A DNA stretch of 64,000 nucleotides from an uncultured SAR86 cluster bacterium (GTDB lineage: Bacteria; Pseudomonadota; Gammaproteobacteria; Magnimaribacterales; D2472): assembly GCA_964275345.1 (NCBI GenBank), contig CAXYBK010000003.1:25058-89057 (forward strand). Reading direction: 5' to 3'. A program made the translations under genes and the position numbers. This document shows positions 1 through 48,289 of this stretch, piece by piece. Numbering within the stretch: position 1 is the first letter of the stretch; every line of letters begins with the position of its first letter. The notes under the pieces are model-generated. The model saw only the letters and a program-made list of their open reading frames with translations, was not told where the DNA came from and searched no databases.

Positions 1-394
1 TTACGGTTCTTTTACCAAATTGATTCTTTAACTCAAACTCTGTTCGTTGAGCTAGTAAGCTGTTTAAGCTGTTAAAGCTACCATTATTTGCCTGATAAAA
101 TTTTAGAACATCTGTAATTTTATATTTTACAAAAGAGTCTACTAATAGATATTTACTCTCAACAGTAAGAATTCTATCTGGCTCTTCATCTAAAGTTTGA
201 AGTCTAGAATCAAACTTTTTAACGTTCTGGATTATCGGAAATTTAAAGTTTAGACCTTTAGGGACGTCGGGCCTAATAGCTTCACCAAACTGAAAGACAA
301 TGGCATGCTCTTTATCATTAACAACAAAAACACTATTAATGGTAATTCCTAGAATTAAAGCTGCTAGTACGGTTATGGTTGTAGATCTATTCAT
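1..394 (-). CDS. hflC: HflC, FtsH protease modulator (SPFH/band 7); N-terminal 131 codons only, gene runs off the left edge
   Basis: My own minus-strand translation from the ATG at 394-392 gives MNRSTTITVLAALILGITINSVFVVNDKEHAIVFQFGEA...GLNFKFPIIQNVKKFDSRLQTLD, collinear with the HflC N-terminus. The ATG overlaps the hflK stop (TAATG). This ORF is not in the supplied track because it is truncated. Confidence 0.8.
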   Translation of the reverse strand, partial: MNRSTTITVLAALILGITINSVFVVNDKEHAIVFQFGEAIRPDVPKGLNFKFPIIQNVKKFDSRLQTLDEEPDRILTVESKYLLVDSFVKYKITDVLKFYQANNGSFNSLNSLLAQRTEFELKNQFGKRTV

Positions 395-1434
395 TAGTCT
401 TCCTCACTCTTTTTATTTTGTTCCATAATTTTATCTAAAGGTAAATATAGAAGATTATTTCCACCTTCCACATCAACCATAACTTTTGTTGAATTTGAAA
501 GTACTGACTGCATCGCATCTATATATAAACGATCCCTAGTAACTTTTGGAGCTTTTTTATATTCTTCAAGAAGTTTATCAAATCTTGCAACTTCACCCTC
601 TGCATTTGATACTACTTCTTTCCTGTAACCCTCTGCATCTTGAATTCTAGCTTGAGCTTGACCCCTTGCCTCAGGAACAATTGTTAAAGCATATCTTTCA
701 GCTTCATTCTGGAGCCTTTCTTTGTCCTCTCTAGCTGCAACAACATCATCAAATGCATCTTTAACCGCTGCTGGGGGATCTGTTTTTTCAATATTAATTT
801 GCTGAACTATTAATCCTGTTTGGTAGATATCGAGATAACTTTGTAATCTTTCTCCAACTCGTATTGCTATATTCTCTCTTCCAACTGTAAGAGTTTGATC
901 AAGTGTATTATCACCAACTACGTGTCTTAAAGCGCTTTCTGTGGCCTGTCTTAAACTAGCTTCTGGATCCTTAACATTTAAAACAAAATCTTTAAGGTTT
1001 GCTATTCTGTATTGCGCTGAAACTGTTACATCCACAATATTTTCATCTTTAGTAAGCATATTTGCAGACTGAGAATATCTTCTAGTAAGAGTTACATTTT
1101 CAATATATCTTTCATCAACCCCAGCAAGCATAAAGTTAAGACCTTCTTCTGAAGTCTTATGATATTCACCAAATCTTAGAACCACTGATTGCTCTGAAGA
1201 ATCTAGCTGATAAACACAGAGAGATCCGTATATTACTGCAGCTGCAAAAAAACCATAACCAAAGATTTTTTTTGTAGGCATCTTAAAATCTCCACCAGAT
1301 GAGGAGCCATTTGAATTTTTATTGCCTCCTCCAAGTATTGCAGAAAACTTTTTAATTAATTCATCGAAATCCGGGCCGTCATTATTATTGTTATTGCCCC
1401 ATGGATCTTTATTGTTTTGATTATCCCAATTCAC
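394..1434 (-). CDS. hflK: HflK, FtsH protease modulator (SPFH/band 7)
   Basis: 346-aa ORF with an N/G/S-rich low-complexity N-terminus, one TM segment, an SPFH core and a charged coiled C-terminus. It lies directly upstream of hflC. Confidence 0.85.
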   Translation of the reverse strand: MNWDNQNNKDPWGNNNNNDGPDFDELIKKFSAILGGGNKNSNGSSSGGDFKMPTKKIFGYGFFAAAVIYGSLCVYQLDSSEQSVVLRFGEYHKTSEEGLNFMLAGVDERYIENVTLTRRYSQSANMLTKDENIVDVTVSAQYRIANLKDFVLNVKDPEASLRQATESALRHVVGDNTLDQTLTVGRENIAIRVGERLQSYLDIYQTGLIVQQINIEKTDPPAAVKDAFDDVVAAREDKERLQNEAERYALTIVPEARGQAQARIQDAEGYRKEVVSNAEGEVARFDKLLEEYKKAPKVTRDRLYIDAMQSVLSNSTKVMVDVEGGNNLLYLPLDKIMEQNKKSEED

Positions 1435-1494
1435 TTTTAAATTCCTGTTTGTTTTTTATTATTATAAAGTCTATTTGGGTATTAAATTTAATAA

Positions 1495-4066
<2,572 letters not shown>

Positions 4067-5586: not shown

Positions 5587-6631
5587 TTTGCATATCGATA
5601 AATAGGTTACTTCCATCTGTAAATTTATAAAGAGAGTCAGCAGCTAATATTACAGCAGCTGCAGTCCATGATGGCTTCTCATCTGGCCAAAAAATATTTT
5701 CAACATACTGCCATCCCATGTATGGAATATTATCCTCATCAGAAATATTTAAGGATTCTAAAAATATGTTTTTTGCCAAATTTATTTCATCTGCTTTTAC
5801 TGCAGCAATCACAAACTCATTAGTCTCAGCAACCGTTACCCAAGGCTCTTCTTTTACACATTTAATTCCTAAGCCTTCAATATAAAAATTAGCAAGTGTA
5901 TTTACTATAATGTCTTTACTCTCATCTCTATTAAAAGCACCTGAAATTATTGGATAATACCAGTCCATGGAAAACCTTTTTCTGTCTATTTTTATATCAA
6001 ATAAGCCTTCAGGATTTCTTATAGCTTTTTTTAATTTAAGATAAGAGCTCTGCCAGTTCTTTAGCTTTAATTCATCTGCGTCTTGGGTAATATTAAATAA
6101 GGCAATTGCGCATTCCAAACTTTTTAAAATTGAGGATGAGCCAGTTACTAGGAAATCATCTCCTGATAAGCCTTCCTCATTAAGGCACCATGGAATTGTT
6201 CCTTTATCATTCTGAAGATCAATAGAAAAATTAATACCTTTGCTAGCATAAGGCCACATAGATTTAACATATTTTAGGTCTTTGGTAATTAAATAGTAAT
6301 GAAGTAATCCGGTACTCATATAGCAAGAAAAATGAGTTTGTTTGTTTGTTTGAATAGCCTTATCATCAACAAATTCACTGTGCCAACTTCCATCTTTATT
6401 TTGATTATTAACTAGCCAATCGAATCCTAGCCTTGCTGCCTCTAAATGTCCCAAAGTTGCTAGGCCCATTATTGATTCGATATGGTCCCATGGATCAAGT
6501 TTTCCTCCTTTAAGAGATGGAATTGCACCTGAAGGAGACTGGCAGGATTTTATATAATCTGCTGATGATTTATAAAAATCTAGATGAGTATGATCAAGAC
6601 CCTCAAATGTCTTCTTTATTGGCATATGCAT
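5573..6631 (-). CDS. alpha/alpha-toroid protein with prenyltransferase/squalene-cyclase-type QW-like repeats; function unknown
   Basis: 352 aa with repeated motifs WLVNNQNKDGSW and IDLQNDKGTIPW. Its start overlaps the stop of the upstream methyltransferase by 1 nt. Confidence 0.5.
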   Translation of the reverse strand: MHMPIKKTFEGLDHTHLDFYKSSADYIKSCQSPSGAIPSLKGGKLDPWDHIESIMGLATLGHLEAARLGFDWLVNNQNKDGSWHSEFVDDKAIQTNKQTHFSCYMSTGLLHYYLITKDLKYVKSMWPYASKGINFSIDLQNDKGTIPWCLNEEGLSGDDFLVTGSSSILKSLECAIALFNITQDADELKLKNWQSSYLKLKKAIRNPEGLFDIKIDRKRFSMDWYYPIISGAFNRDESKDIIVNTLANFYIEGLGIKCVKEEPWVTVAETNEFVIAAVKADEINLAKNIFLESLNISDEDNIPYMGWQYVENIFWPDEKPSWTAAAVILAADSLYKFTDGSNLFIDMQTKNL

Positions 6632-7335
6632 TATTTTTTTTGATAATACATAGCAATACTTTTTCCAAGTATTGGATTAAGAATCTTATCAAGAATCTCT
6701 AGATATAATGGTTTTTCAAGGATTTGTTTTTCAAGAACCTTTTTATAAGCTCTAACTAATATATTTGTTTCTTGTGTTTTCCAAAACATACATCTTAACC
6801 ACCAATATGGAGCATGCAACGAATGAAATTTTTCAGAAGAAATATAATTAAAACCATGGCGTGAAATTGTATTAATTGCGTCTTTCTTCTTAAAAATTCT
6901 TACATGACCACCTGGCATATTGTGATAATCTTCTGATAGCATCCAACATACTCTTTCTGGCCAATATGCAGGAAAACTCGGTAAGAAATACCCACCTGGT
7001 TTTAAAATTCTTTCAATTTCATCTAAAGCATCTTCATAGTTAATCAAATGTTCAAGAACTTCAGAACAAACCACCATGTCAAATGAAGAATCAGCAAAAG
7101 GCATTTGGTAGCCAGAAGCCATGGTAAATCCTGCTCCTTCATTTGATATAGATTCAAAGTATTCTGCGCCCTCTTGAGCAATTCTTAGAGATTCAGTATG
7201 AAGATCTAGTCCTACACAATAAGCATTAGGATATTTATCCATTATCCCAAATATATGACGCCCTTCGCCACAACCTAGATCTAAGACCTTTGCGCCATCT
7301 GGAATATTAATTTTGTTAAAATCAAAAGTTAGCAT
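6631..7335 (-). CDS. class I SAM-dependent methyltransferase (Methyltransf_11-like)
   Basis: 234 aa with VLDLGCGEGRH motif I and FDMVVCSEVLEHL. Confidence 0.75.
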   Translation of the reverse strand: MLTFDFNKINIPDGAKVLDLGCGEGRHIFGIMDKYPNAYCVGLDLHTESLRIAQEGAEYFESISNEGAGFTMASGYQMPFADSSFDMVVCSEVLEHLINYEDALDEIERILKPGGYFLPSFPAYWPERVCWMLSEDYHNMPGGHVRIFKKKDAINTISRHGFNYISSEKFHSLHAPYWWLRCMFWKTQETNILVRAYKKVLEKQILEKPLYLEILDKILNPILGKSIAMYYQKK

Positions 7336-9581: not shown

Positions 9582-10959
9582 ATGAAACTTATTGAATCTA
9601 TATTTCGAGAATATGATATTAGAGGTACTTATCCAGAAGAAATAAATGAAGAAATTATATCAATAATTGGTCAAGCAATAGCATTAAAGTGCAAAGAGGA
9701 AGGTGTTACCGAAATTTCAGTTGGAAGAGATGGAAGACTTTCTGGAGAGGTGCTACTAGATTCTATGTGTAATTCAATTGCAAAGTCAGGCATTTCAGTT
9801 GCTAATATTGGATTGGTTACAAGCCCTATTTTGTATTATGCAGCCAAAAAAAATGCTTCTAAGAGTGGCATCATGATTACTGGAAGTCACAATCCTAAAG
9901 ATGATAATGGTATTAAAATGGTGATTAATGATAAACCTGTTTCAGGCACTGAAATACTTTCATTGACTAAATATATTCCAGAGTTTGATGAAACAAAAAA
10001 AGGAATAATCAAAACAGAAATTATTGAAGATTATATAAATGATGTTCTGCAAAAAATAAGTCTAAATCACCCCGAGAATTTAAAAGTTGTGGTTGATTGT
10101 GGAAATGGAGCAGCTGGATGTGTTGCTCCTGAATTATTTAAAAGATTAGGATGTAATGTAATTAATCTTTTTTCTGAGATTGATGGAAATTTTCCAAATC
10201 ACCACCCTGATCCTGGAAAACTTGAAAATCTACAAGATCTAATAGAAGCAGTAAAGAAAGAAAAGGCAGATCTTGGTCTTGGCATTTGATGGAGATGGTG
10301 ATAGAGTTGGATTAGTTACTGAAAAAGGTAATGTAGTTTTTCCAGATAAAATTATGATGCTTTTAGCAAAAGATGTATTGGCTAAAAATCGTGGCGGTCA
10401 GATTATCTTTGACGTGAAATGTTCAAATTCATCTTGCAGAAATCATCATAGGCAAATGGTGGAAAACCTATTATGTCTCCAACTGGGCATTTTCATATAA
10501 AGAATAAACTTAAGAGAGACTAATGCCTTACTTGCTGGTGAAATGAGTGGTCATATCTTTTTTAATGATAATTGGTATGGGTTTGATGATGGTCATTATG
10601 CTGGCGTTAGATTAATAGATCTTATTAATAGATCAGATTCTTCGATAGATGATATGGTTTCTAAATTACCAAAATCATTTTCTACGCCTGAACTTAATAT
10701 TTATGCAAGTGATGATGTTAAGTTTGATGTTGTTAAAAAGTTTGCCGAAGAATGTTCTTTAGATGGAAACAAAATAACAATTGATGGTTTGCGGATTGAA
10801 TTTAGTAACGGATGGGGTTTGTTAAGAGCATCGAATACAACACCTAAACTAGTATTAAGATTTGAAGGAAATAGTGAGGACGATCTAAAAACAATACAGG
10901 AAAACTTTATAAATGAATTTAAAAGAATATGTCCTGAAATTGATCCAACTATGCATTAG
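9582..10959 (+). pseudogene. algC: phosphomannomutase/phosphoglucomutase (alpha-D-phosphohexomutase), frame broken four times
   Basis: ORFs 9582..10289, 10273..10500 and 10543..10959 plus short stretches in the other frames reconstruct a collinear PMM/PGM. Recognisable parts are REYDIRG, the active-site ITGSHNP, the Mg loop (L)AFDGDGDRVGLV, ..FDVKCSNSLAEIIIGNGGKPIMSPTGHFHIKNKLKETNALLAGEMSGHIFF and RASNTTP. Four +1 shifts are needed, near 10281, 10430, 10456 and 10515. Confidence 0.75.
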
Positions 10960-26658: not shown

Positions 26659-26727
26659 AAATTCCTATAGAATATAGACCAAGGTACTATAGATACCTGC
26701 AGATTTAAGAACAATTAAGGGAAAATT

Positions 26728-27834
26728 ATGAAAATAACTCACACAGATGGACCGCCTAAAGATTTACTATATTTTGATGAAGAAATGGATCTCCAACAAA
26801 AAGATGTTGAAGATGTAGCTGAAATTTTTAAAACTCCTTTAACAGGATCATATAACTGGGACTATACGGTCTCTGATAATAGAATTAAAAGACTCTATGA
26901 GCTTGGAAAAGAGCTTAACTGGAATGGTTCCCTTGATTTAAATTGGGACTACACTCATCCTGCAAATGAAAAATTAGTTGAAGCTGATGAGGATTTGCCA
27001 CATGAAACTTTAGAAGCTTATGAAAATCTTACGGAAGAAGAGAAAATTGAGTTTGATAGACATGACACTGCTGAACTTTTAAGCCAATTTTTACACGGAG
27101 AGCAAGGCGCTCTCTTGGTTGCTTCTCAGTTGGTTTCTTGTGCGCCAACATATAATGCAAAACTTTATGCAGCATCTCAAACATTTGATGAAGCTCGACA
27201 TGTTGAAGTCTTTAATAGATATCTTCAAGAAAAAATTGGAGTTCATTATCCAATCAATCCAAATTTAAAAGCACTGTTAGATAAAATCTTAACTGATGAA
27301 AGATGGGATCTAAAATTTATAGGAATGCAAATTATCATTGAAGGTCTAGCATTGGCTGCTTTCCAAATGTTAAAAATGTTAACTAAAGATCCTTTATTAA
27401 AACAACTTCTTCACTATGTGGTTAGAGATGAAGCAAGGCACGTAACCTTCGGTATTAATTACTTAGAAGATTTTATTAAAACTTTAACTCCTGAAGAAAT
27501 TGAGGAGAGAGCAGAGTTTGCCTATGAAGCATGTGTTATTTCAAGAGAACGTCTTATAAATACAACTGCAATGCAGAAGTATTTAAAAATGTCAGAAGCT
27601 GAGGCAAGAGAGTTCTCTCTAAGCACCAGTGCTAATGCTACTTTTAGAAACTTCTTATTTTCAAGAGTGATTCCAAATCTTTCGAGAATTGGCTTACTAA
27701 CTGACTCAGTAAGGCCTAAATTTGAAGCCTTAGGTTTATTAGAATATGAAAATGCTCCTGATGACTTTGAAGTTGATTGGGTTGAACTAGAGAAGCCTCT
27801 TGAAGAATTCGATAAAATACCTACAGCAATCTAA
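26728..27834 (+). CDS. ferritin-like diiron-carboxylate protein (AurF-like diiron oxygenase family), substrate unknown
   Basis: 368 aa with two E...DEARH-type ligand motifs (HGEQGA...FDEARHVE and IIEGLA...RDEARHVTF). Confidence 0.55.
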   Translation: MKITHTDGPPKDLLYFDEEMDLQQKDVEDVAEIFKTPLTGSYNWDYTVSDNRIKRLYELGKELNWNGSLDLNWDYTHPANEKLVEADEDLPHETLEAYENLTEEEKIEFDRHDTAELLSQFLHGEQGALLVASQLVSCAPTYNAKLYAASQTFDEARHVEVFNRYLQEKIGVHYPINPNLKALLDKILTDERWDLKFIGMQIIIEGLALAAFQMLKMLTKDPLLKQLLHYVVRDEARHVTFGINYLEDFIKTLTPEEIEERAEFAYEACVISRERLINTTAMQKYLKMSEAEAREFSLSTSANATFRNFLFSRVIPNLSRIGLLTDSVRPKFEALGLLEYENAPDDFEVDWVELEKPLEEFDKIPTAI

Positions 27835-36231: not shown

Positions 36232-36310
36232 ACAGAAAGATTATAGACTAGATTAAGGGTCACCATTTATATAAAATGGCACTCTTGTTATTTTCTTATA
36301 GGACACCAGC

Positions 36311-38458
36311 ATGAATAAATTTTTTCTTTTTATACTATTACTAACACCAATTAATTATATTTTTGCAGATGAAGGAATGTGGGAACCGTCTCAACTTCCA
36401 AATATTGAAAAAGATATTAGAGCTGCTGGATTTAAGGGTAATATTAAAAAATTTAGCGACTTATTCGAGCACCCTTTAAGCGCCATGGTAAGTCTTGGAG
36501 GTTGTTCAGCTGCATTTATCTCTGATTCGGGTTTAATCGCTACAAACTACCATTGTATTGAAGGTTCATACTTGCAATTTAATGCAAAAAGAATGGAAAT
36601 GGATTTATTTAAAACTGGTTTTCTTGCAAAAAGCATAGAAGAGGAAGCTCCATCTGCACCTGGAGCAAGAGTTTACATTACACAAGAAAGTACCAATGTA
36701 ACAGAAGAAGTTTTAGTGGGCTCTAGTGATGCGAAATCAGAAAATGAAAGATATAAAATTATTCAATCTAATAGAAAAGATCTTATTAAAAATTGTGAAA
36801 CTAGTGAAGAATTTCAATGTGAGGTTAGAAGTTTCTATAGTGGTGAAACCTATCAATTGATCAAAAAAATGATCATAAAGGATGTGAGATTAGTTTATGC
36901 CCCACCTCAGTCTATCGGTGAATACGGTGGAGAAATAGATAATTGGATGTATCCAAGGCACACAGGTGATTTTGCACTACTAAGAGCCTATGTGAGTCCT
37001 AAGAACGAAAGTAAGGAGTATTCTGAGGATAATATTCCCTATCAATCAAAAGACTTTTTAAAAGTATCTAAGAAAGGTGTTCAGGAAGGTGATTTTGTAA
37101 TGATAGCCGGCTATCCGGGAAGAACAAACAGACTTTTAACATATCCAGAAATAAGATTTGATGTTCAGTTTGGATTTGAGAATTATGTTGAGTACTTAAA
37201 GTCAGGGATTGATTTAATGCGTGATCTTACAAAAGATGATGAGCAGAAAGCTTTAAAATATAGAGGTAGTATTAGTGGATTTGAGAATTATTATAAAAAG
37301 ATAAGTGGCCAAATTGAAGGTGCTAAAAACTTTAATTTATTAAAGCAAGAAAAGCAGAACTGGAATAAATTTCTTGAGTTTATTGAAACAAATGGAAGCT
37401 CTATAGAGCAAGATGCACTCGATACACTGTTGGAAATTACCAACGAAGTAAATAGTGAAAGCGTAACTAATTTATATTATGGAGGCTCAACTCTTTTAAG
37501 TACTGCTGCAAGTTTATATAGACATGCATATGAAAAAACTAAACCTAATAATGAAAGAGAGCCTGGTTATCAAGAAAGGGACTATGAGAGATTAGTTAAT
37601 AGAATGCGAAGTATGGAATATAGATTTGATGCTGAAGTTGATAAAGGTATTTTTCTCTTTAGATTGAATCGGTATAGAGAAGTCGATAGCAAAGATAGAC
37701 GAGCAGTATTTAGTTCAGCATTAAGACTAGATGAGTCTTATGAAGATACTACTAATGTTGTGGATGCTATGTATTCATATTCATCTGATTTATTGGATAT
37801 GAATAAGAGAATTGCTTTATTAGATGTATCACTTGAAGAGCTTAATGATTCATCAGACCCATTTATGATGCTTGCAAGAGATATGTTTGATGAAGGAATG
37901 GAACGTGAAAAGAAAAATAAAGCTAGATCTAGTTTGCAACAAAAAAATAAATCTATCTTTATTAAATCACTTAGAAAATTCTATAAATCTCAAGGTAAAG
38001 ATATTTATGCAGATGCAAATGGAACATTAAGGGTTACTTTTGGAAACGTTATGGGGGTTGAGCTTAATGATGGAGTTTACTATAAACCTTTCACCACTCT
38101 TGAGGGGATAGCTCAAAAAAATACTGGGGTTTCACCTTTTGCGGTTGATGTAAAACAACTTAAATTAATTAATGATAAGAACTATGGTAGTTATAAGTTT
38201 GATGCAATTAATAGTGTTCCTGTTAATTACATTTCTAATTTAGATATTACAAATGGTAATTCTGGATCTTCAACAATCAATGCACGAGGTGAATTTGTTG
38301 GATTAGCTTTTGATGGAATGCTAGAAACTATTATTTCTGATTATAAATTTATACCAGAGACAAGAACTATTCATGTAGATTCTAGATATCTTTTATGGAC
38401 ATTAGAGGTCTTCGAAGAGGATACAAGACTTATAAAAGAAATGAAGATTGTTAAATAA
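36311..38458 (+). CDS. S46 family dipeptidyl-peptidase (DPP7/DPP11-like)
   Basis: 715 aa with a signal peptide followed by DEGMW, then TNYHC (His) and GNSGS (Ser) catalytic motifs. Confidence 0.85.
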   Translation: MNKFFLFILLLTPINYIFADEGMWEPSQLPNIEKDIRAAGFKGNIKKFSDLFEHPLSAMVSLGGCSAAFISDSGLIATNYHCIEGSYLQFNAKRMEMDLFKTGFLAKSIEEEAPSAPGARVYITQESTNVTEEVLVGSSDAKSENERYKIIQSNRKDLIKNCETSEEFQCEVRSFYSGETYQLIKKMIIKDVRLVYAPPQSIGEYGGEIDNWMYPRHTGDFALLRAYVSPKNESKEYSEDNIPYQSKDFLKVSKKGVQEGDFVMIAGYPGRTNRLLTYPEIRFDVQFGFENYVEYLKSGIDLMRDLTKDDEQKALKYRGSISGFENYYKKISGQIEGAKNFNLLKQEKQNWNKFLEFIETNGSSIEQDALDTLLEITNEVNSESVTNLYYGGSTLLSTAASLYRHAYEKTKPNNEREPGYQERDYERLVNRMRSMEYRFDAEVDKGIFLFRLNRYREVDSKDRRAVFSSALRLDESYEDTTNVVDAMYSYSSDLLDMNKRIALLDVSLEELNDSSDPFMMLARDMFDEGMEREKKNKARSSLQQKNKSIFIKSLRKFYKSQGKDIYADANGTLRVTFGNVMGVELNDGVYYKPFTTLEGIAQKNTGVSPFAVDVKQLKLINDKNYGSYKFDAINSVPVNYISNLDITNGNSGSSTINARGEFVGLAFDGMLETIISDYKFIPETRTIHVDSRYLLWTLEVFEEDTRLIKEMKIVK

Positions 38459-38464
38459 TTGTAG

Positions 38465-38598
38465 AAAATAAGAAAGGGCTCGAAGATTACATTTTAGAGA
38501 AACTTTGCTTTGATTTCTTATAGGAGATTATCAAAACACACTTTTAAGGTTCTATGTAGATAAGGGAAACTCAACACCTTAAACTATAACCTTCGAGT
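38465..38598 (-). ncRNA. candidate Fur-repressed small RNA (RyhB/PrrF-type functional analogue); ends approximate
   Basis: A promoter with a Fur box lies immediately upstream. There is no convincing ORF. Structure: an 11-bp closing stem (38597-38587 with 38489-38479), two internal hairpins with loops UUUCCCUUAUC and UCUCCU, and a U-rich 3' tail. Confidence 0.45.
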
Positions 38599-38600
38599 GC

Positions 38601-38633
38601 GTAAATGATAATCATTCTCATCTAATATTACAA
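38601..38633 (-). promoter_or_regulatory. sigma70-like promoter TTGTAA-N17-TATCAT overlapped by a Fur box
   Basis: The -35 is at 38633-38628 and the -10 at 38610-38605 (minus strand). The 19-mer gtaaatgataatcattctc (38601-38619) matches GATAATGATAATCATTATC at 16/19 positions. Confidence 0.6.
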
Positions 38634-38637
38634 CCTT

Positions 38638-38669
38638 TTATTCAAAAAAAAGTACTTATTTTTGAATAA
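38638..38669. repeat. 32-nt AT-rich near-perfect palindrome/hairpin just after the katG stop (possible terminator or operator)
   Basis: The sequence ttattcaaaaaaaagtacttatttttgaataa forms 14 bp with one mismatch around a gtac centre. Confidence 0.5.
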
Positions 38670-38682
38670 ATTTAGCTAAATA

Positions 38683-40842
<2,160 letters not shown>

Positions 40843-40917: not shown

Positions 40918-40953
40918 TTGCTAATAAATATAAACTAAATGATAATTATTTTA
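40918..40953 (+). promoter_or_regulatory. possible promoter TTGCTA-N17-GATAAT with a weaker Fur-like box, upstream of the small ORF-sodN-sodX operon
   Basis: The 19-mer at 40935-40953 matches the Fur consensus at 13/19, with core AAATGATAAT. An AT-rich background lowers the significance. Confidence 0.3.
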
Positions 40954-40976
40954 CACATAAAAAATAGGAAAATATC

Positions 40977-41165
40977 TTGAAAAAACTAACATCAATAATA
41001 TTTTGCGCTCTCGCATCATTTAATTTAAGTGCTCATGGGGAAGGAATAGTTGGTCTACATATTCATGGTGAGTCTACTTTAGTACTAGGACTAATCTTGG
41101 CTATGTTGATAGTAATGCCAATGTACTTTTCAAAGAAATTGCTATTAATTAAGAAGGAGAAATAA
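40977..41165 (+). CDS. small His-rich membrane protein upstream of sodN
   Basis: 62 aa. The TTG start has AGGA 7 nt upstream. It has a signal-like N-terminus ending LSA, then HGEGIVGLHIHGES, one TM and a basic tail. Its stop lies 1 nt before the sodN ATG. Confidence 0.5.
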   Translation: MKKLTSIIFCALASFNLSAHGEGIVGLHIHGESTLVLGLILAMLIVMPMYFSKKLLLIKKEK

Positions 41166-41662: not shown

Positions 41663-41902
41663 ATGCTTCCTGCTTATGAACCAAATAATTACGTTCTTTG
41701 TATAAAAACAAAAAATATTAAAGTAGATGATGTAATCATTATGCAAACTAATGATCTTGGAAAAGTAGTCAAAAGAGTCAAATCTATATCAGGAGACTCT
41801 TTAAAAATATCAGGTGATAATAAATCTTATCATTCACCTATATATGATATGACGCATAAACTAGATACAGTTATTGGAAGAGTTATATTTAAATTATTTT
41901 AA
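41663..41902 (+). CDS. sodX: Ni-SOD maturation peptidase (S26 signal-peptidase-like); true start probably upstream of 41663
   Basis: It lies directly downstream of sodN and carries S26-like motifs (..GISMLP spanning the annotated ATG, and VKRVKSISGDSL). See the finding on the start codon. Confidence 0.7.
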   Translation: MLPAYEPNNYVLCIKTKNIKVDDVIIMQTNDLGKVVKRVKSISGDSLKISGDNKSYHSPIYDMTHKLDTVIGRVIFKLF

Positions 41903-42867: not shown

Positions 42868-42995
42868 TCAAGCAGAGTTTTTAGACTCGTACCAAAAAAT
42901 AACATCAATTATTACGAAGTATTGTTTGTCATATGCTTCCAAAGATAACGAAGCCCAAAAATTGCTGGCCTGAAAGAATTGCCTGGACTATAAAT

Positions 42996-43071
42996 TGGTG
43001 GAGCTACGCGGGATCGAACCGCGGACCCCCTGCTTGCAAAGCAGGTGCTCTCCCAGCTGAGCTATAGCCCC
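42996..43071 (-). tRNA. tRNA-Ala (anticodon UGC), CCA encoded
   Basis: The reverse complement reads GGGGCTATAGCTCAGCTGGGAGAGCACCTGCTTTGCAAGCAGGGGGTCCGCGGTTCGATCCCGCGTAGCTCCACCA. This is near-identical in layout to E. coli tRNA-Ala(UGC), including the G3:U70 pair. Confidence 0.95.
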
Positions 43072-43168
43072 ACGAATGAGTCGACAATTGTACTTTATTA
43101 AAGATTAATTGTAACCCTGTGTAATCGACAAAATAATCAACTGATAAGAGATCTATTTCTTGTATGCA

Positions 43169-43205
43169 TAAAAAAAGAGAGCTGCTTAGTTAAAAACAGC
43201 TCTCT
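43169..43205 (-). terminator. rho-independent terminator of the TonB-dependent receptor gene
   Basis: A 9-bp stem AGAGAGCTG/CAGCTCTCT (43176-43184 with 43197-43205) is followed on the minus strand by a T-run. Confidence 0.7.
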
Positions 43206-43218
43206 TTTAAATTATTTA

Positions 43219-45387
43219 CTAGAAGTTGTAAGTAAAGCCTACTTTGAAAGATCTAGGTTTCTGAGATCTAGCACCATTTTTGGGCGCTCTTGAAACTATA
43301 TCTTCTCCATCAGATAAGTTTTCAATCACAGTGTAAACAGAAACATTATCATTAACTTTTTGTCTAAGACTTAAGTCAACAAAAGTATATGATTCTATGT
43401 TCTCAAACGCACCACATTGTGCACTAGAACAAGTGCTTCCATACTTAACTAGTCTTACATCTCCACTCATTCCAGCATCTGTTACAAAACCAGCAACTAA
43501 AGCTAATTGTGAATCAGGAAGGTAAGGAACGTCGTCGCCTGCGGCAACTGTTCCAAAGTAATCTGAATCAAAACTTGATTGGAATTCAGACGAAGTTGTT
43601 GCCCATGTGAAGGCTAAAGGATATGAAATATTATCACCTTCAACAACTGTAGAAGCTACAACCTCAAGACCTGATACATCGACCTCTCCGCCACTAAAAG
43701 TTTCACCAGCTTCACAGTCTCCGCCACTAGAATTTTTACATTCTCCGACTAGATTTGCATAATCACTAGCAAAATACATTACTTCTAAAGCTGTAACATC
43801 TTTGTTATATCTAAAGCCCAGCTCCATATTGTCAGCTTGCTCTGCATCTCCACCAAATACTGGTGACATACCTTGATGGAAACCTGCAACTAATTTTAGG
43901 TTTTCATTCATGTCATATGTAGCACCAAGTCCAGTAGTTGAATAGTCGCCAGAAGAATTTTTAGGATAGCTTGAATTTGGCATTGTTCTTGTTGGAACTC
44001 CATCGTCCCATCTCATTTCAACTTTATCAAATTCTTCAGATCTATGTCCAACAGTGACTGCTAATGCACCCATAGTGATGGTATCTTGAACAAACCATGA
44101 AGTTGCTGTTGTTGTTCTCAGTCTATTATTACTTCCTGTAAAACCAGTTGAACAAGAAACTAAAGCGGAAAGACTTCCATCTGCTGCTTGATCAGTACAC
44201 TCATAGCTTTGAAGTCTACTTTCAGAATCTTCCATATCTCTATAACCAAAAGTTACAGCATGATTACCAATTTCTTTTGAAAGATTAAGTTGTATACCTT
44301 CGTTTGTATAAAATCTATTGTTATGCTTTAACTTAACAGTCACAGCTAATTCGCCATCAAGAATAGCTTGTGCATTTGCATCCCCACCATTTGCAGCTGC
44401 AATAACTTCATCAATACCATCTTCTACACCATGCGCTTTAGTATTGTTAGCTTTATCAACTTTGAACCAGTCTCTGTGGTAGTCATTGCTCCACATAGTG
44501 GCTGTTAGAGTAAATGCTTCAAAATCACCAACATAAGCAAAAGAAGTTTGCTCGCCGTCGTTATTCATAACATCATAAGCACTCATTCCGTATCTTTTTC
44601 TTGGGTTGTCATCAAAACTTGCTTGGGTTAAACCAACGTAGGTTTGATTAGACATTTCATCTATATCAAGCATTTTAAAAGTAAGTTGATGAACGCCTGA
44701 GGTATATCTTAATTTCGCAAGAAAGTCAGATTTATCAAAACCAGTATCACCACCAACATTCATAATAGAATCAAATCCATCAACTGAATTCTCATGAATT
44801 TCTACTAAGCCTGAAAGGGCTCCATTATTAACTCCATAAGTAGCATGAGTTCTTGATAGTCCGTCGCTTCCTAGCTCTTGAGTAACAAAACCACCATTAA
44901 CTTCAGGAATAGGAGTACTAATCATGTTAATGGCTCCACCAATTGTAGATGGTCCTTGAGTAATTGCTGCTGGTCCTTTTAGAACCTCAACAGCGTGAAT
45001 TCTTCCAGTAGTTGGGAAGTAATATGCTGATGCAGATGTATATGGAGCTGGAGCAATAAGCACTCCGTCTTCCATTAGGGTAACTTTACCAGATCTATCA
45101 GGAGCAGTACCTCTAATGGATATATTTGGTCTAAGACCGTATCCATCTTCAGTTCTTACGTATACTCCAGGTACAGCTGATAAGATTTTATGTATATCAG
45201 TGTCAACCATTTTAGCTAGATCTTCATTAGATAGAACTGTTGCAGAACCTGCGACATCTTCCTGAGACCCTACTATAGTAACGGTTTCAACTGTATTCAT
45301 TTCCATTTCAGCATAAGCGCTTAAGCTAAATAATGCTAAGAAAGCAAATGAATTTAAGACTTTAATATTAATACTCATAAATAACAC
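43219..45387 (-). CDS. TonB-dependent outer-membrane receptor, probably iron-regulated
   Basis: 722 aa with a signal peptide, plug domain motifs, a beta-barrel and a terminal aromatic residue (..FTYNF). A Fur-box promoter lies upstream. Confidence 0.85.
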   Translation of the reverse strand: MLFMSINIKVLNSFAFLALFSLSAYAEMEMNTVETVTIVGSQEDVAGSATVLSNEDLAKMVDTDIHKILSAVPGVYVRTEDGYGLRPNISIRGTAPDRSGKVTLMEDGVLIAPAPYTSASAYYFPTTGRIHAVEVLKGPAAITQGPSTIGGAINMISTPIPEVNGGFVTQELGSDGLSRTHATYGVNNGALSGLVEIHENSVDGFDSIMNVGGDTGFDKSDFLAKLRYTSGVHQLTFKMLDIDEMSNQTYVGLTQASFDDNPRKRYGMSAYDVMNNDGEQTSFAYVGDFEAFTLTATMWSNDYHRDWFKVDKANNTKAHGVEDGIDEVIAAANGGDANAQAILDGELAVTVKLKHNNRFYTNEGIQLNLSKEIGNHAVTFGYRDMEDSESRLQSYECTDQAADGSLSALVSCSTGFTGSNNRLRTTTATSWFVQDTITMGALAVTVGHRSEEFDKVEMRWDDGVPTRTMPNSSYPKNSSGDYSTTGLGATYDMNENLKLVAGFHQGMSPVFGGDAEQADNMELGFRYNKDVTALEVMYFASDYANLVGECKNSSGGDCEAGETFSGGEVDVSGLEVVASTVVEGDNISYPLAFTWATTSSEFQSSFDSDYFGTVAAGDDVPYLPDSQLALVAGFVTDAGMSGDVRLVKYGSTCSSAQCGAFENIESYTFVDLSLRQKVNDNVSVYTVIENLSDGEDIVSRAPKNGARSQKPRSFKVGFTYNF

Positions 45388-45413: not shown

Positions 45414-45443
45414 AATGATAATGATTATCATTTAGATTTACAA
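45414..45443 (-). promoter_or_regulatory. promoter TTGTAA-N17-TATCAT overlapped by a palindromic Fur box
   Basis: aatgataatgattatcatt (45414-45432) is AATGATAAT-G-ATTATCATT. The -10 is at 45420-45415 and the -35 at 45443-45438 (minus strand). Confidence 0.75.
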
Positions 45444-45981: not shown

Positions 45982-47286
45982 TTATTGAATAAAAGGATCG
46001 CTATCATCTATTAAAGTAAAGCCTTCAATATCAGTAAATCTAGTTAATTCATCATTTCCTATATTAATAAGGGCATACATTGATCCTGTTTCAGTTATTC
46101 GTTCTTCTAAAATACAACCCATGCTATAAAGTTTAGATCTAATATTGCCTAAACTTGCATCCAAAGAGATCCATCCTCTATAGATGCCCTCAAATAATGT
46201 ATTACTTATAGATTCTCTTAATTCCTCTAATCCTTTGTTCTTTTCAGCAGAAATCCATATTTGTCTTCCCTCAATATCAGATCTAGATTCAAAATCTTTG
46301 TAACCCTTTAGATCGCTTTTATTATTTATTCTAATTTGTGGAATTTTAGCAATGCCTAGCTCTTCTAATAAAATATCTACTTGAGAAACCTTAAATCTAT
46401 AATCAGGATCTGAAATATCAACTACATGAAGTAATAAGTCTGCAGATTTAAGCTCGTCTAAGGTTCCTTTAAAAGACTCAATAAGTTGGGTTGGAAGATC
46501 TGAAATGAATCCTACTGTATCTGAAAATAATATAGAGCTGAGCTCTGGATCAATATTTTTTCTTGTTACAGAATCCAGTGTTGCAAATAGCTTATCTGCA
46601 GCATATTGCTCATTATCTGTAAGTCTGTTAAATAATGTTGTTTTACCTGCATTGGTGTAGCCAACCAAAGCAACCAGCTTATTGCGACTCTTCATTCTTG
46701 AGTACTGATTAATCTTCTTTTGTTTATGACTTTTATCTAATCTAGCTTTAATAGTTTTGATTCTATTATTTATTAATCTTTTATCAGTTTCTAGCTGAGT
46801 TTCTCCTGGCCCGCGAAGTCCAATGCCGCCCTTTTGTCTTTCTAAATGAGTCCAAGCCCTAATCAATCTAGTTGATAGATGAGTTAGCTGAGCTAATTCA
46901 ACTTGTAGTTTACCTATATGAGTTGATGCTCTTGATGCAAAAATATCTAAAATAAGTCCAGTCCTATCAACTACTCTGACATTAAATGCATTCTCAAGAT
47001 TTCTTTCTTGTGAAGGAGAAAGTGTATGGTTAAAAATTACTATTTCGGCGCAAGTTTCCTCAACAGATCTTTTAATTTCTTCTATTTTGCCTTTTTTTAA
47101 GAAATGACTAGCTAATGGCGCATCTTGCTTTCCTGAGATTTCATCTAATATCTCAACACCGGAGGATCTCGATAAGTCTTTGAATTCGGCGAATGCATTA
47201 ATGGCTGACTGATCCTTCTGTAAAGAAGTGACTTCCATTTGCACGATAATTGCTTTTTGTGGAGTGGATACTGGAACTTCAATCAT
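45982..47286 (-). CDS. hflX: ribosome-associated GTPase HflX
   Basis: 434 aa with the HflX N-domain (RTGLILDIFA, GGIGLRGPGETQLETD) and G-domain GYTNAGKTTLFN, DTVGF and NKSD. Confidence 0.9.
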   Translation of the reverse strand: MIEVPVSTPQKAIIVQMEVTSLQKDQSAINAFAEFKDLSRSSGVEILDEISGKQDAPLASHFLKKGKIEEIKRSVEETCAEIVIFNHTLSPSQERNLENAFNVRVVDRTGLILDIFASRASTHIGKLQVELAQLTHLSTRLIRAWTHLERQKGGIGLRGPGETQLETDKRLINNRIKTIKARLDKSHKQKKINQYSRMKSRNKLVALVGYTNAGKTTLFNRLTDNEQYAADKLFATLDSVTRKNIDPELSSILFSDTVGFISDLPTQLIESFKGTLDELKSADLLLHVVDISDPDYRFKVSQVDILLEELGIAKIPQIRINNKSDLKGYKDFESRSDIEGRQIWISAEKNKGLEELRESISNTLFEGIYRGWISLDASLGNIRSKLYSMGCILEERITETGSMYALINIGNDELTRFTDIEGFTLIDDSDPFIQ

Positions 47287-47354
47287 ATATTGATTCCATT
47301 GTAGAACCTTTATTGAATTTTTTGCTATTATATTTAGGTAGGCATTAATTATTA

Positions 47355-47504
47355 ATGCTTAGGGAGTTATTAATTAATAAAGCAGAACGTTTAGCAAACT
47401 CAGAACAAGCTAGCAAAAAGCGAAGATCAATTAAAAAAATTGTTTCAGAACAGAAACAGAATCTATATAGAAAAGTAAGAAAAGCAAAAAAGAAAAGAAT
47501 CTAA
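47355..47504 (+). CDS. possible 49-aa highly basic small protein (weak call)
   Basis: My own translation gives MLRELLINKAERLANSEQASKKRRSIKKIVSEQKQNLYRKVRKAKKKRI. It lies in an otherwise unexplained 253-bp spacer and has only a distant AGG-rich stretch upstream. Confidence 0.2.
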   Translation: MLRELLINKAERLANSEQASKKRRSIKKIVSEQKQNLYRKVRKAKKKRI

Positions 47505-47539
47505 TCTTAAGGTTTTTTGTTACTTACTTTTAGCTGGCT

Positions 47540-48289
47540 TTAAATGATCCAAGGCAAGATTGCCTTTCTGGATTCAGGATACTCTTTAAACTCTTTTTTA
47601 TACCATTTGTGATTAGCAATAGCCCTTGGAAACAGGTTGGCAAAAGTCCATAAGAAAAATATAAATCCTGATAGGCTGAAGGTAAGAATGGCCCAACCCA
47701 TCCACTCTAATAACTCACCAAAATAATTAGGCGATGAAAGTCGCTTAAATAAAAAGCTATTTGCAATATGGTAACCAGGGCCTTTTTCTTTTCTTAGATT
47801 AATCAAAATATAATCTGAGCGTATATTTATATAAAGCCCAGAAATAAAAATACATATTCCAATAATAAATGCTGGGGAACTTAACCAATCCAAAGAATAG
47901 CTAGCAAAGTAAAAAATCCAATAACCTTGAATTGAAACATTAATAATATTAAAAAAGAAAGCTGATAAAGCAATGGTGAGAGGCATCTCTTTACCTGACA
48001 TATTTACTCTATAAGGCCAAATAAAGGTTCTATGCACGTAATGAGTGAGCCAAAGAGCTAAAAAGATACCTTGAACTAGATTTAATGATTCCCAGGTGCC
48101 TGCAGCCAATATAAGCATTAAAACTACACATGGTGATTCCATAAAGACCCACCCAAATCTTGCTGATACATTGGGTCCCCAGCCTTCTTTAAGATGTCTG
48201 CCATATGGAGCTACTACATAAAAAAGAGAAAAGAATATAACTACAGCGATGGCAATCCAGGTTATTGAAAAAATATTAAATGAACTCAT
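47540..48289 (-). CDS. 3-oxo-5-alpha-steroid 4-dehydrogenase (steroid 5-alpha-reductase)/DUF1295-type membrane reductase
   Basis: 249 aa, polytopic, with the C-terminal motif SPNYFGELLEW.GWA... typical of this family. Confidence 0.65.
   Translation of the reverse strand: MSSFNIFSITWIAIAVVIFFSLFYVVAPYGRHLKEGWGPNVSARFGWVFMESPCVVLMLILAAGTWESLNLVQGIFLALWLTHYVHRTFIWPYRVNMSGKEMPLTIALSAFFFNIINVSIQGYWIFYFASYSLDWLSSPAFIIGICIFISGLYINIRSDYILINLRKEKGPGYHIANSFLFKRLSSPNYFGELLEWMGWAILTFSLSGFIFFLWTFANLFPRAIANHKWYKKEFKEYPESRKAILPWII

Follow-up and report, generated by a model that had tools for sequence, protein, structure and literature searches.

A predicted Fur-operated structured RNA gene in the spacer between the S46 peptidase and katG genes of one SAR86 subclade

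The spacer between an S46 peptidase gene and katG in an uncultured SAR86 cluster bacterium appears to hold an independent gene for a structured non-coding RNA (ncRNA). It lies on the minus strand of the window, which is the whole 64,000-nucleotide (nt) stretch of contig CAXYBK010000003.1 (assembly GCA_964275345.1) that was analysed. The sequence evidence gives good support to an RNA of about 120–140 nt that would be expressed from its own sigma-70-type promoter, the -10 hexamer of which is situated inside a predicted Fur operator. It is considered very probable that this is a Fur-operated ncRNA gene, and by analogy with known systems the balance tilts towards a base-pairing riboregulator of iron starvation. 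The element is also a well-supported candidate for a small RNA (sRNA) family that has not been described before and is restricted, as far as seen, to one SAR86 subclade. An initial annotation, made from the DNA letters, had placed an sRNA of the RyhB/PrrF type in this spacer. The positions and sequences it gave for the stops, the hexamers and the Fur-like 19-mer were all correct on re-reading, and the "RyhB/PrrF-type iron-sparing" role that it assigned is to be read as an analogy only.

The S46 peptidase gene (36311–38458, plus strand; Pfam Peptidase_S46, E = 2e-201) and katG (38683–40836, minus strand, its true start probably the ATG at 40815) are convergent, and their stops at 38458 and 38683 enclose a spacer of 224 bp. 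This spacer had been called unusually long, which is true among convergent gene pairs. The window, with a GC content of 33% (range 30–38%), has 11 such pairs, nine of which overlap or are at most 3 bp apart, and the only other long convergent spacer (42868–43218) contains a tRNA gene (42999–43071, minus strand). That second spacer also contains a canonical intrinsic terminator at about 43170–43215, after a TonB-dependent receptor gene, which indicates that classical terminators are in use by this genome.

The promoter region of the element carries a signal for Fur. The 19-mer at 38601–38619, GTAAATGATAATCATTCTC, matches the classical Fur box GATAATGATAATCATTATC at 16 of 19 positions and covers the -10 hexamer, as first annotated, and the overlapping 15-mer TGATAATCATTCTCA (38606–38620) matches the 7-1-7 Fur motif TGATAATNATTATCA at 14 of 15 positions. 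Promoter-like hexamer pairs alone are not above chance in the window (7 found vs. 10.0 expected). For the Fur motif at one mismatch or fewer, two sites are present in the 64 kb vs. 0.07 expected, and none of 100 shuffles reached two. The second site (45416–45430) is a perfect TGATAATGATTATCA located 29 nt upstream of the TonB-dependent receptor gene (43219–45387, minus strand), 7 kb from the sRNA, which encodes Plug and beta-barrel domains. The promoter of this receptor has the identical TTGTAA-17-TATCAT arrangement, with the Fur box in the same register over the -10 hexamer as in the sRNA promoter. Two more distant gammaproteobacterial metagenome-assembled genomes (MAGs) have ATGAGAATGATAATCATTCTCAT upstream of a homologous receptor.

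Comparison of the 60 nt upstream of P1, the helix that closes the RNA, was performed as an ungapped alignment of the relatives. The distance between the -35 and -10 hexamers was always 17 nt, and every normally arranged carrier has the block ATGAGAATGATTATCATT, which includes the Fur site and TATCAT, in invariant form. Between these blocks the bases vary freely, as do the 2–3 bases before P1, and such conserved blocks separated by free variation look like a typical phylogenetic footprint. The proposed promoter and Fur-box block is thus invariant, has a fixed spacing and is repeated in architecture at the receptor promoter. Fur boxes are distinguished from PerR and Zur boxes by a G at motif position 2 and a C at position 14. 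Both bases are present here, so PerR control, which the neighbourhood of katG might suggest, is unlikely. Between the katG stop and the -35 hexamer lies a terminator-like hairpin, the sequence of which changes among relatives (AACCCTTTTT/AAAAAGGGTT, TTAAGTGCT/AGCACTTAA) while its pairing potential is kept. Because of this hairpin, the sRNA is taken as an independent transcription unit and not as the 3' untranslated region (UTR) of katG. The conserved RNA structure begins one base after the predicted transcription start at about 38598.

The distribution of the element was determined by two scans. When GTDB genomes were scanned with the S46 protein, 46 loci came up, nearly all of them from SAR86 single-cell genomes or MAGs, and eight of these loci (L001–L007 and L042), with S46 proteins 81–90% identical, contain the element. 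A metagenome scan with two invariant single-stranded motifs, in which the stems were left free, added 15 contigs. Together with the window, this gives 24 sequences with 16 distinct core versions, and in every carrier the element is syntenic, between S46 and katG, in the gene order cysE, S46, element, katG, sodN and a DtxR-family repressor. The alignment of the 16 distinct sequences (A1) has a mean column identity of 92%. The covariance model R1 scores the minus strand of the window at 146.5 bits and recognizes a single copy in the 64 kb. It has no match in the 38 other S46 loci (other SAR86 clades or gammaproteobacteria), also when the filters are off.

When the window is compared with eight relatives of other lineages (the near-identical L054 excluded), the 121-nt core is 86–97% identical, and the fourfold-degenerate sites in the same comparison are 47–57% identical for S46 and 41–66% for katG. 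Conservation of the element is thus similar to that of the proteins encoded next to it and much higher than that of neutral sites, as the initial annotation would lead one to expect of a functional spacer. Sequence conservation is lacking in the katG hairpin and in the short 3' tail. One of the genomes, L042 (MAG FRAM18_bin311, 6290–6330), has the same spacer as the window up to 38629, after which the -35 hexamer and the katG terminator region are replaced by unrelated sequence; the S46 and katG genes of L042 appear frameshifted in the assembly.

The RNA of the window is predicted to fold into a closing stem P1 of 12–13 bp, a P2 hairpin of 8 bp extended by 4 and a P3 hairpin of 9 bp. Its loops contain UUUCCCUUAUC and UCUCCU, and its tail is CCCUUUCUUAUUUUCU. 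The closing stem, the two hairpins, the pyrimidine-rich loops and the tail described at the outset are therefore all present, with stems somewhat longer than claimed. The minus-strand fold has an energy of -30.6 kcal/mol (z = -3.58), which none of 200 shuffles reached, vs. z = -1.25 for the plus strand. The RNAalifold consensus is a three-way junction in which P1 joins RNA positions 2–13 with 109–120. Standard pairs fill 523 of the 528 pair cells (99.1%), and none of 500 shuffles came up to the alignment in pairing, covariation score or number of pair types. When the pairing partner was slid by 1–3 columns, pairing fell to 35–52%.

Classical covariation is limited because the divergence is shallow. 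Both-sided changes are found in two P1 pairs only (A-U to U-A by way of U·G), and in P3 five of the nine pairs vary, on one side only and always through G·U. The G·U variants comprise 55 cells in 12 pair columns vs. one A·C cell, and the same columns pair in 523 of 528 cells on the minus-strand RNA vs. 469 of 528 on its complement. This asymmetry, together with the promoter, assigns the RNA to the minus strand of the window. The conserved fold with compensatory change that had been anticipated is thus seen as wobble-compatible substitutions with some compensatory ones, and they fit the minus strand only. No conserved open reading frame (ORF) was found in the element. A small protein was considered and rejected: in keeping with the earlier reading that no convincing ORF exists, there is only a frame of about 20 codons (FKVLSFPYLHRTLKVCFDNLL), which has no ATG and is broken by 1-nt insertions or deletions in four lineages (L003, L007, L055 and L057). 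At the other end of the RNA, sequence conservation stops at the 3' arm of P1, and in 12 of 15 distinct tails a U-tract of 3–7 nt follows 2–3 nt after P1. The 3' end is probably set by P1, which may terminate transcription in an unusual way or protect the RNA from 3' trimming. Transcription that passes P1 would run antisense into the end of S46. The features of the element are listed in Table 1.

Table 1. Positions of the predicted sRNA, its control region and its structural parts in the window
Feature	Position	Strand	Remarks
katG terminator-like hairpin ATTCAAAAA...TTTTTGAAT	38640..38667	-	3' flank runs into the sRNA -35 hexamer
-35 hexamer TTGTAA	38633-38628	-	TTG kept (TTGnnT) in 15/16 distinct upstream sequences
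Predicted Fur operator	38601-38619	-	Overlaps the -10 hexamer; block ATGAGAATGATTATCATT invariant
-10 hexamer TATCAT	38610-38605	-	Invariant; 17 nt from the -35 hexamer
Conserved sRNA core, 121 nt	38478..38598	-	Predicted 5' end ~38598, 7 nt after the -10 hexamer; P1 starts at RNA position 2
P1, 5' arm	38586..38597	-	Pairs with 38479-38490; 12 pairs, 97.9% of cells paired
P2 hairpin UUUAAGGU/ACCUUAAA with 4-bp extension	38543..38583	-	100% of cells paired
P2 apical motif GAGUUUCCCUUAUC	38559-38572	-	Invariant in 16/16 sequences
P3 hairpin, 9 bp	38506..38538	-	100% of cells paired
P3 loop, anti-Shine-Dalgarno-like (U/C)CUCCUAU	38515-38529	-	CUCCU(A)U invariant in 16 sequences
Single-stranded linker AAAGUUUCUCUAAAA	38492..38506	-	Invariant in 16/16; unpaired in the consensus fold
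P1, 3' arm	38479..38490	-	Pairs with 38586-38597
Variable pyrimidine/U-rich 3' tail	38461..38477	-	Adjacent to the S46 stop codon; may be a weak terminator tract behind P1

The following mechanism is proposed from the position of the operator, the comparative fold and analogy with other iron-responsive RNAs. In the presence of iron, Fe-Fur would sit on the operator and block the promoter, and when iron is scarce the RNA would be made. According to the comparative analysis, the transcript would fold as a three-way junction, in which P1 joins the 5' and 3' ends and is accompanied by P2 and P3. This junction would expose three invariant pyrimidine-rich segments, namely GAGUUUCCCUUAUC, CUCCUAU and AAAGUUUCUCUAAAA. 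Most likely, these segments would pair with purine-rich ribosome-binding regions and lower translation, and P1 and the short U-tract would probably define or protect the 3' end. Such an RNA would be an "iron-sparing" riboregulator, functionally like RyhB, PrrF and FsrA and unrelated to them in sequence. In field iron-addition experiments, SAR86 TonB-dependent transporters were up-regulated where no iron was added (PMC11069385), which indicates that SAR86 possesses an iron-responsive transcriptional regulon.

Comparison with known RNAs placed the element outside the described families. An Rfam cmscan of 38200–38900 on both strands at E ≤ 10 returned only chance matches of the snoRNA type, and the single match in the whole window at the gathering threshold was a tRNA. 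With regard to the RyhB/PrrF-type claim, the part that stood is the Fur operator over the promoter of a conserved ncRNA unit, and homology to RyhB or PrrF is not seen, as Rfam gives no match at E ≤ 10. RyhB (RF00057; Enterobacteria and Vibrio) resembles the element in its Fur box over the promoter and in being a short, independently transcribed ncRNA of gammaproteobacteria, and a role in iron starvation would be expected here as well. In contrast to RyhB, which consists of a few hairpins and ends in a Rho-independent terminator, the window RNA is a three-way junction with a helix closing its 5' and 3' ends, has several C/U-rich anti-Shine-Dalgarno-like loops and comes from a genome in which hfq was not seen at the canonical loci; it has no sequence or structure match to RyhB by the Rfam scan. 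The action of RyhB is Hfq-dependent. PrrF1/PrrF2 (RF00444, Pseudomonas), ArrF and NrrF are Fur-repressed as well, and they are analogues of RyhB without homology to it, so the Fur-sRNA class has arisen repeatedly. The window RNA differs from these by having no covariance-model match, a single copy instead of a tandem arrangement and another fold.

In design principle, the closest analogues appear to be FsrA and RsaE/RoxS of Firmicutes, of which FsrA (Bacillus subtilis) is Fur-repressed. These RNAs place unpaired pyrimidine- or C-rich motifs on Shine-Dalgarno sequences, in low-GC genomes and largely without Hfq; FsrA works with the Fbp chaperone proteins. They belong to another phylum, show no homology to the window RNA and have canonical terminators. 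IsaR1 of cyanobacteria is a Fur-controlled iron-stress sRNA of an abundant aquatic phototroph lineage and serves as a precedent for aquatic iron riboregulation, whereas its sequence and lineage are unrelated and its targets lie in the photosynthetic apparatus. For SAR86 itself, Dupont et al. 2012 (PMC3358033) described an ncRNA, taken from the metatranscriptomes of Shi et al. 2009, in a sugar-metabolism (glycolysis/pentose-phosphate) region. It occupies a different locus from the window RNA, no link to Fur was described for it, and no other SAR86 sRNA was found in the literature searched. Taken by analogy, the window RNA seems to share the regulatory logic of RyhB, PrrF, NrrF, FsrA and IsaR1, and it is a member of none of these families by sequence or structure.

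Several results weigh against a Fur-controlled, base-pairing riboregulator. A tblastn search with E. coli Fur gave no match in about 0.8 Mb of SAR86 sequence, which amounts to little of any one genome; Fur itself is therefore inferred from the operator motifs at the receptor genes. The hfq gene is not found at either of its usual neighbourhoods (miaA/hflK; hflX) in the window (394–2493 and 45982–47540), where miaA and hflK are directly adjacent with neither hfq nor hflX between them and hflX lies elsewhere with no hfq-sized ORF upstream. E. coli Hfq likewise had no tblastn match in the 0.8 Mb, and Hfq may be absent from this streamlined lineage. The terminator scan detected no canonical intrinsic terminator for the sRNA, and L003, L055 and L057 lack the U-tract behind P1. 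Folding energy alone does not separate the strands in the relatives, since in L004 and L051 the complementary strand has an equally good fold. Carriers of the family were detected in a single SAR86 subclade (S46 at least 81% identical). In addition, no conserved mRNA target emerged when 51 translation-initiation regions (TIRs) from the window were scanned together with a few orthologous loci, and the window shows no enrichment for sequences complementary to the two long invariant motifs. The missing targets are weak evidence because this search covered 64 kb and a few loci, and a trans-acting RNA would be expected to have its true targets in other parts of the genome.

The best P2-loop match in the window, of 9 bp, is to the Shine-Dalgarno region (26717–26725) of an AurF-like di-iron oxygenase gene (26728–27834), and its Shine-Dalgarno sequence UAAGGGAAA represents the sole occurrence of AAGGGAAA in the window apart from the sRNA itself. 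This candidate was rejected because the Shine-Dalgarno regions differ in nine orthologous loci. The katG and sodN genes were also rejected as targets, since they have only generic anti-Shine-Dalgarno matches of 6–8 bp. In the L055 clade (L055 and L057), the P3 loop has changed from UCUCCU to CCUCCU and closely resembles the 3' end of 16S rRNA, with 11 of 13 positions of the loop GAUGACCUCCUAUA matching GAUCACCUCCUUA. In the same clade, the Shine-Dalgarno sequences of katG and sodN have changed from AGGAGC and AGGAGA to AGGAGG, which extends the katG match from 7 to 9 bp. This joint change of loop and Shine-Dalgarno sequences is a single event that may be a coincidence, and it is not taken as evidence.

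Two rival explanations retain the Fur-controlled RNA and change its function. An RNA devoted to the neighbouring S46 gene, as a convergent antisense RNA or through the P3 loop on the S46 ribosome-binding site, is improbable, although some evidence speaks for it. The RNA converges on S46 with 7–30 nt from P1 to the S46 stop and no strong terminator, and the S46 3' UTR would for this reason be fully complementary to it. The P3 loop UCCUAUAAGAAA (38516–38527) has 12/12 Watson-Crick complementarity to UUUCUUAUAGGA (36292–36303) in the S46 Shine-Dalgarno region; a 12-nt complementarity to any of the 51 TIRs arose in 39 of 1000 shuffles (p ~0.04), and to one of the two adjacent genes in 1 of 1000. 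In L001, the pairing is kept by a both-sided change (G-C to A-U), for which L049 has the G·U intermediate. This match exists in about half of the lineages; it is gone in seven carriers (L004, L005, L006, L052, L055, L058 and L061), all with an intact sRNA. Cognate sRNA/S46-TIR pairs have no advantage over non-cognate ones (mean energy -10.0 vs. -9.8 kcal/mol). These two findings tell against S46 as a base-pairing target, and the S46 ribosome-binding site is left as a weak lead. A purely antisense role would need neither a strand-specific conserved fold nor three invariant loops, and no link between S46 peptidases and iron is known to us. About as doubtful is a Fur-controlled structured RNA that does not pair with mRNA and acts by protein binding or titration, or in another stable-RNA role after processing, comparable to 6S or Y RNAs. 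It would account for ends joined by a helix of 12–13 bp with no canonical terminator, for invariant segments of 14–15 nt that are longer than a typical seed, for the lack of a conserved target in 64 kb and a few loci and for hfq not being seen at its usual loci. Against it, all three segments left exposed are rich in pyrimidines and could pair with Shine-Dalgarno-like sequences, and to our knowledge all characterised Fur-repressed sRNAs act by base-pairing.

The other two explanations deny that the element is an RNA gene of its own. A structured 3' UTR of katG or a bidirectional katG/S46 terminator, with the Fur-like site being incidental or decaying, is very unlikely. In its favour, the element follows katG immediately and on the same strand, P1 can form and the fold is stable on either strand in several relatives, and neither S46 nor katG has a canonical terminator. 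A katG 3' UTR is opposed by the separate hairpin between katG and the element and by the conservation of the -35 hexamer, the 17-nt spacing, the -10 hexamer and the Fur block, whereas the terminator hairpin is not conserved in sequence. A terminator, for its part, would not require invariant loops of 14–15 nt or an identity of 86–97%, and the excess of G·U over A·C cells rules out any role for the S46 strand. Least credible of all is an element that works at the DNA level, either a palindromic repeat or miniature inverted-repeat transposable element (MITE) or an invertible segment with 12-bp inverted repeats. P1 is in fact a near-perfect inverted repeat, and in the single-cell genome L007 (SAG AG-319-N19, 6160–6770) the 120-nt core lies in reverse orientation, bounded precisely by the P1 arms. 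A repeat or MITE was rejected, as no further copies occur in the window, in the 38 other loci or in viral contigs and the single copy always occupies one syntenic position. The substitutions, moreover, respect RNA wobble pairing on one strand, and the nearest relatives of L007 (L055, L057 and L058) are normally arranged. In L007, a 465-bp piece with a 152-aa gene replaces the -35 hexamer and the terminator region; this gene has a different and constant context (DUF952...abhydrolase) in all 11 of the metagenome places examined, and the junction falls within GTAAATGATAAT, a 12-nt microhomology shared with the Fur box. An invertible element was rejected on account of this foreign piece beside the inversion, joined at the microhomology. 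The L007 inversion is probably a chimera of multiple displacement amplification or a one-off illegitimate recombination and no invertible switch.

The genes beyond katG may extend the picture of iron control around the sRNA gene. The Ni-SOD operon has a putative plus-strand promoter (TTGCTA, 40918–40923; 17 nt; GATAAT, 40941–40946) with a Fur-like 19-mer, TAAATGATAATTATTTTAC (40936–40954, plus strand), over its -10 hexamer, and this block is conserved in nine relatives. The operon thus appears to have a Fur-like operator of its own. The neighbourhood suggests a small Fur regulon that consists of the receptor, possibly the Ni-SOD operon and the sRNA. Just upstream of sodN is a conserved 62-aa ORF (40977–41165) with a TTG start, a signal or transmembrane segment and the motifs HGEG...HIHGES, the product of which may bind metal. 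After sodN, a 79-aa ORF (41663–41902) with a Peptidase_S24-like domain fills the apparent spacer between sodN and the DtxR-family gene, and it probably encodes SodX, the protease that matures Ni-SOD; its start may lie earlier. Elsewhere in the window (9582–10959), a phosphoglucomutase/phosphomannomutase is split into two ORFs, with domains I–II in 9582–10289 and domain IV in 10543–10959 and a gap of 254 nt; a frameshift, a pseudogene and an assembly error are possible explanations.

SAR86 bacteria are among the most abundant heterotrophs of the surface ocean and have never been cultured, and iron limits large parts of their habitat. The literature searched contains no SAR86 regulatory RNA with a defined input signal and no Fur-controlled sRNA in a streamlined marine gammaproteobacterium, which agrees with the statement of the initial annotation that none was known for this group. 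A bolder and rather unlikely extension of the riboregulator reading is that the RNA works independently of Hfq: the closing helix would replace the terminator, the three-way junction would provide stability, and the three rRNA-like anti-Shine-Dalgarno loops would dampen many mRNAs when iron runs out. If true, this would be a global, low-cost starvation response suiting a streamlined genome that has few regulators. Once verified, an iron-starvation sRNA could serve as a compact, taxon-specific transcript marker of SAR86 iron stress in metatranscriptomes. It would also show how iron is reallocated in a genome of about 1.3–1.7 Mb with few regulators, and the Fur-sRNA class would gain one more independent origin.

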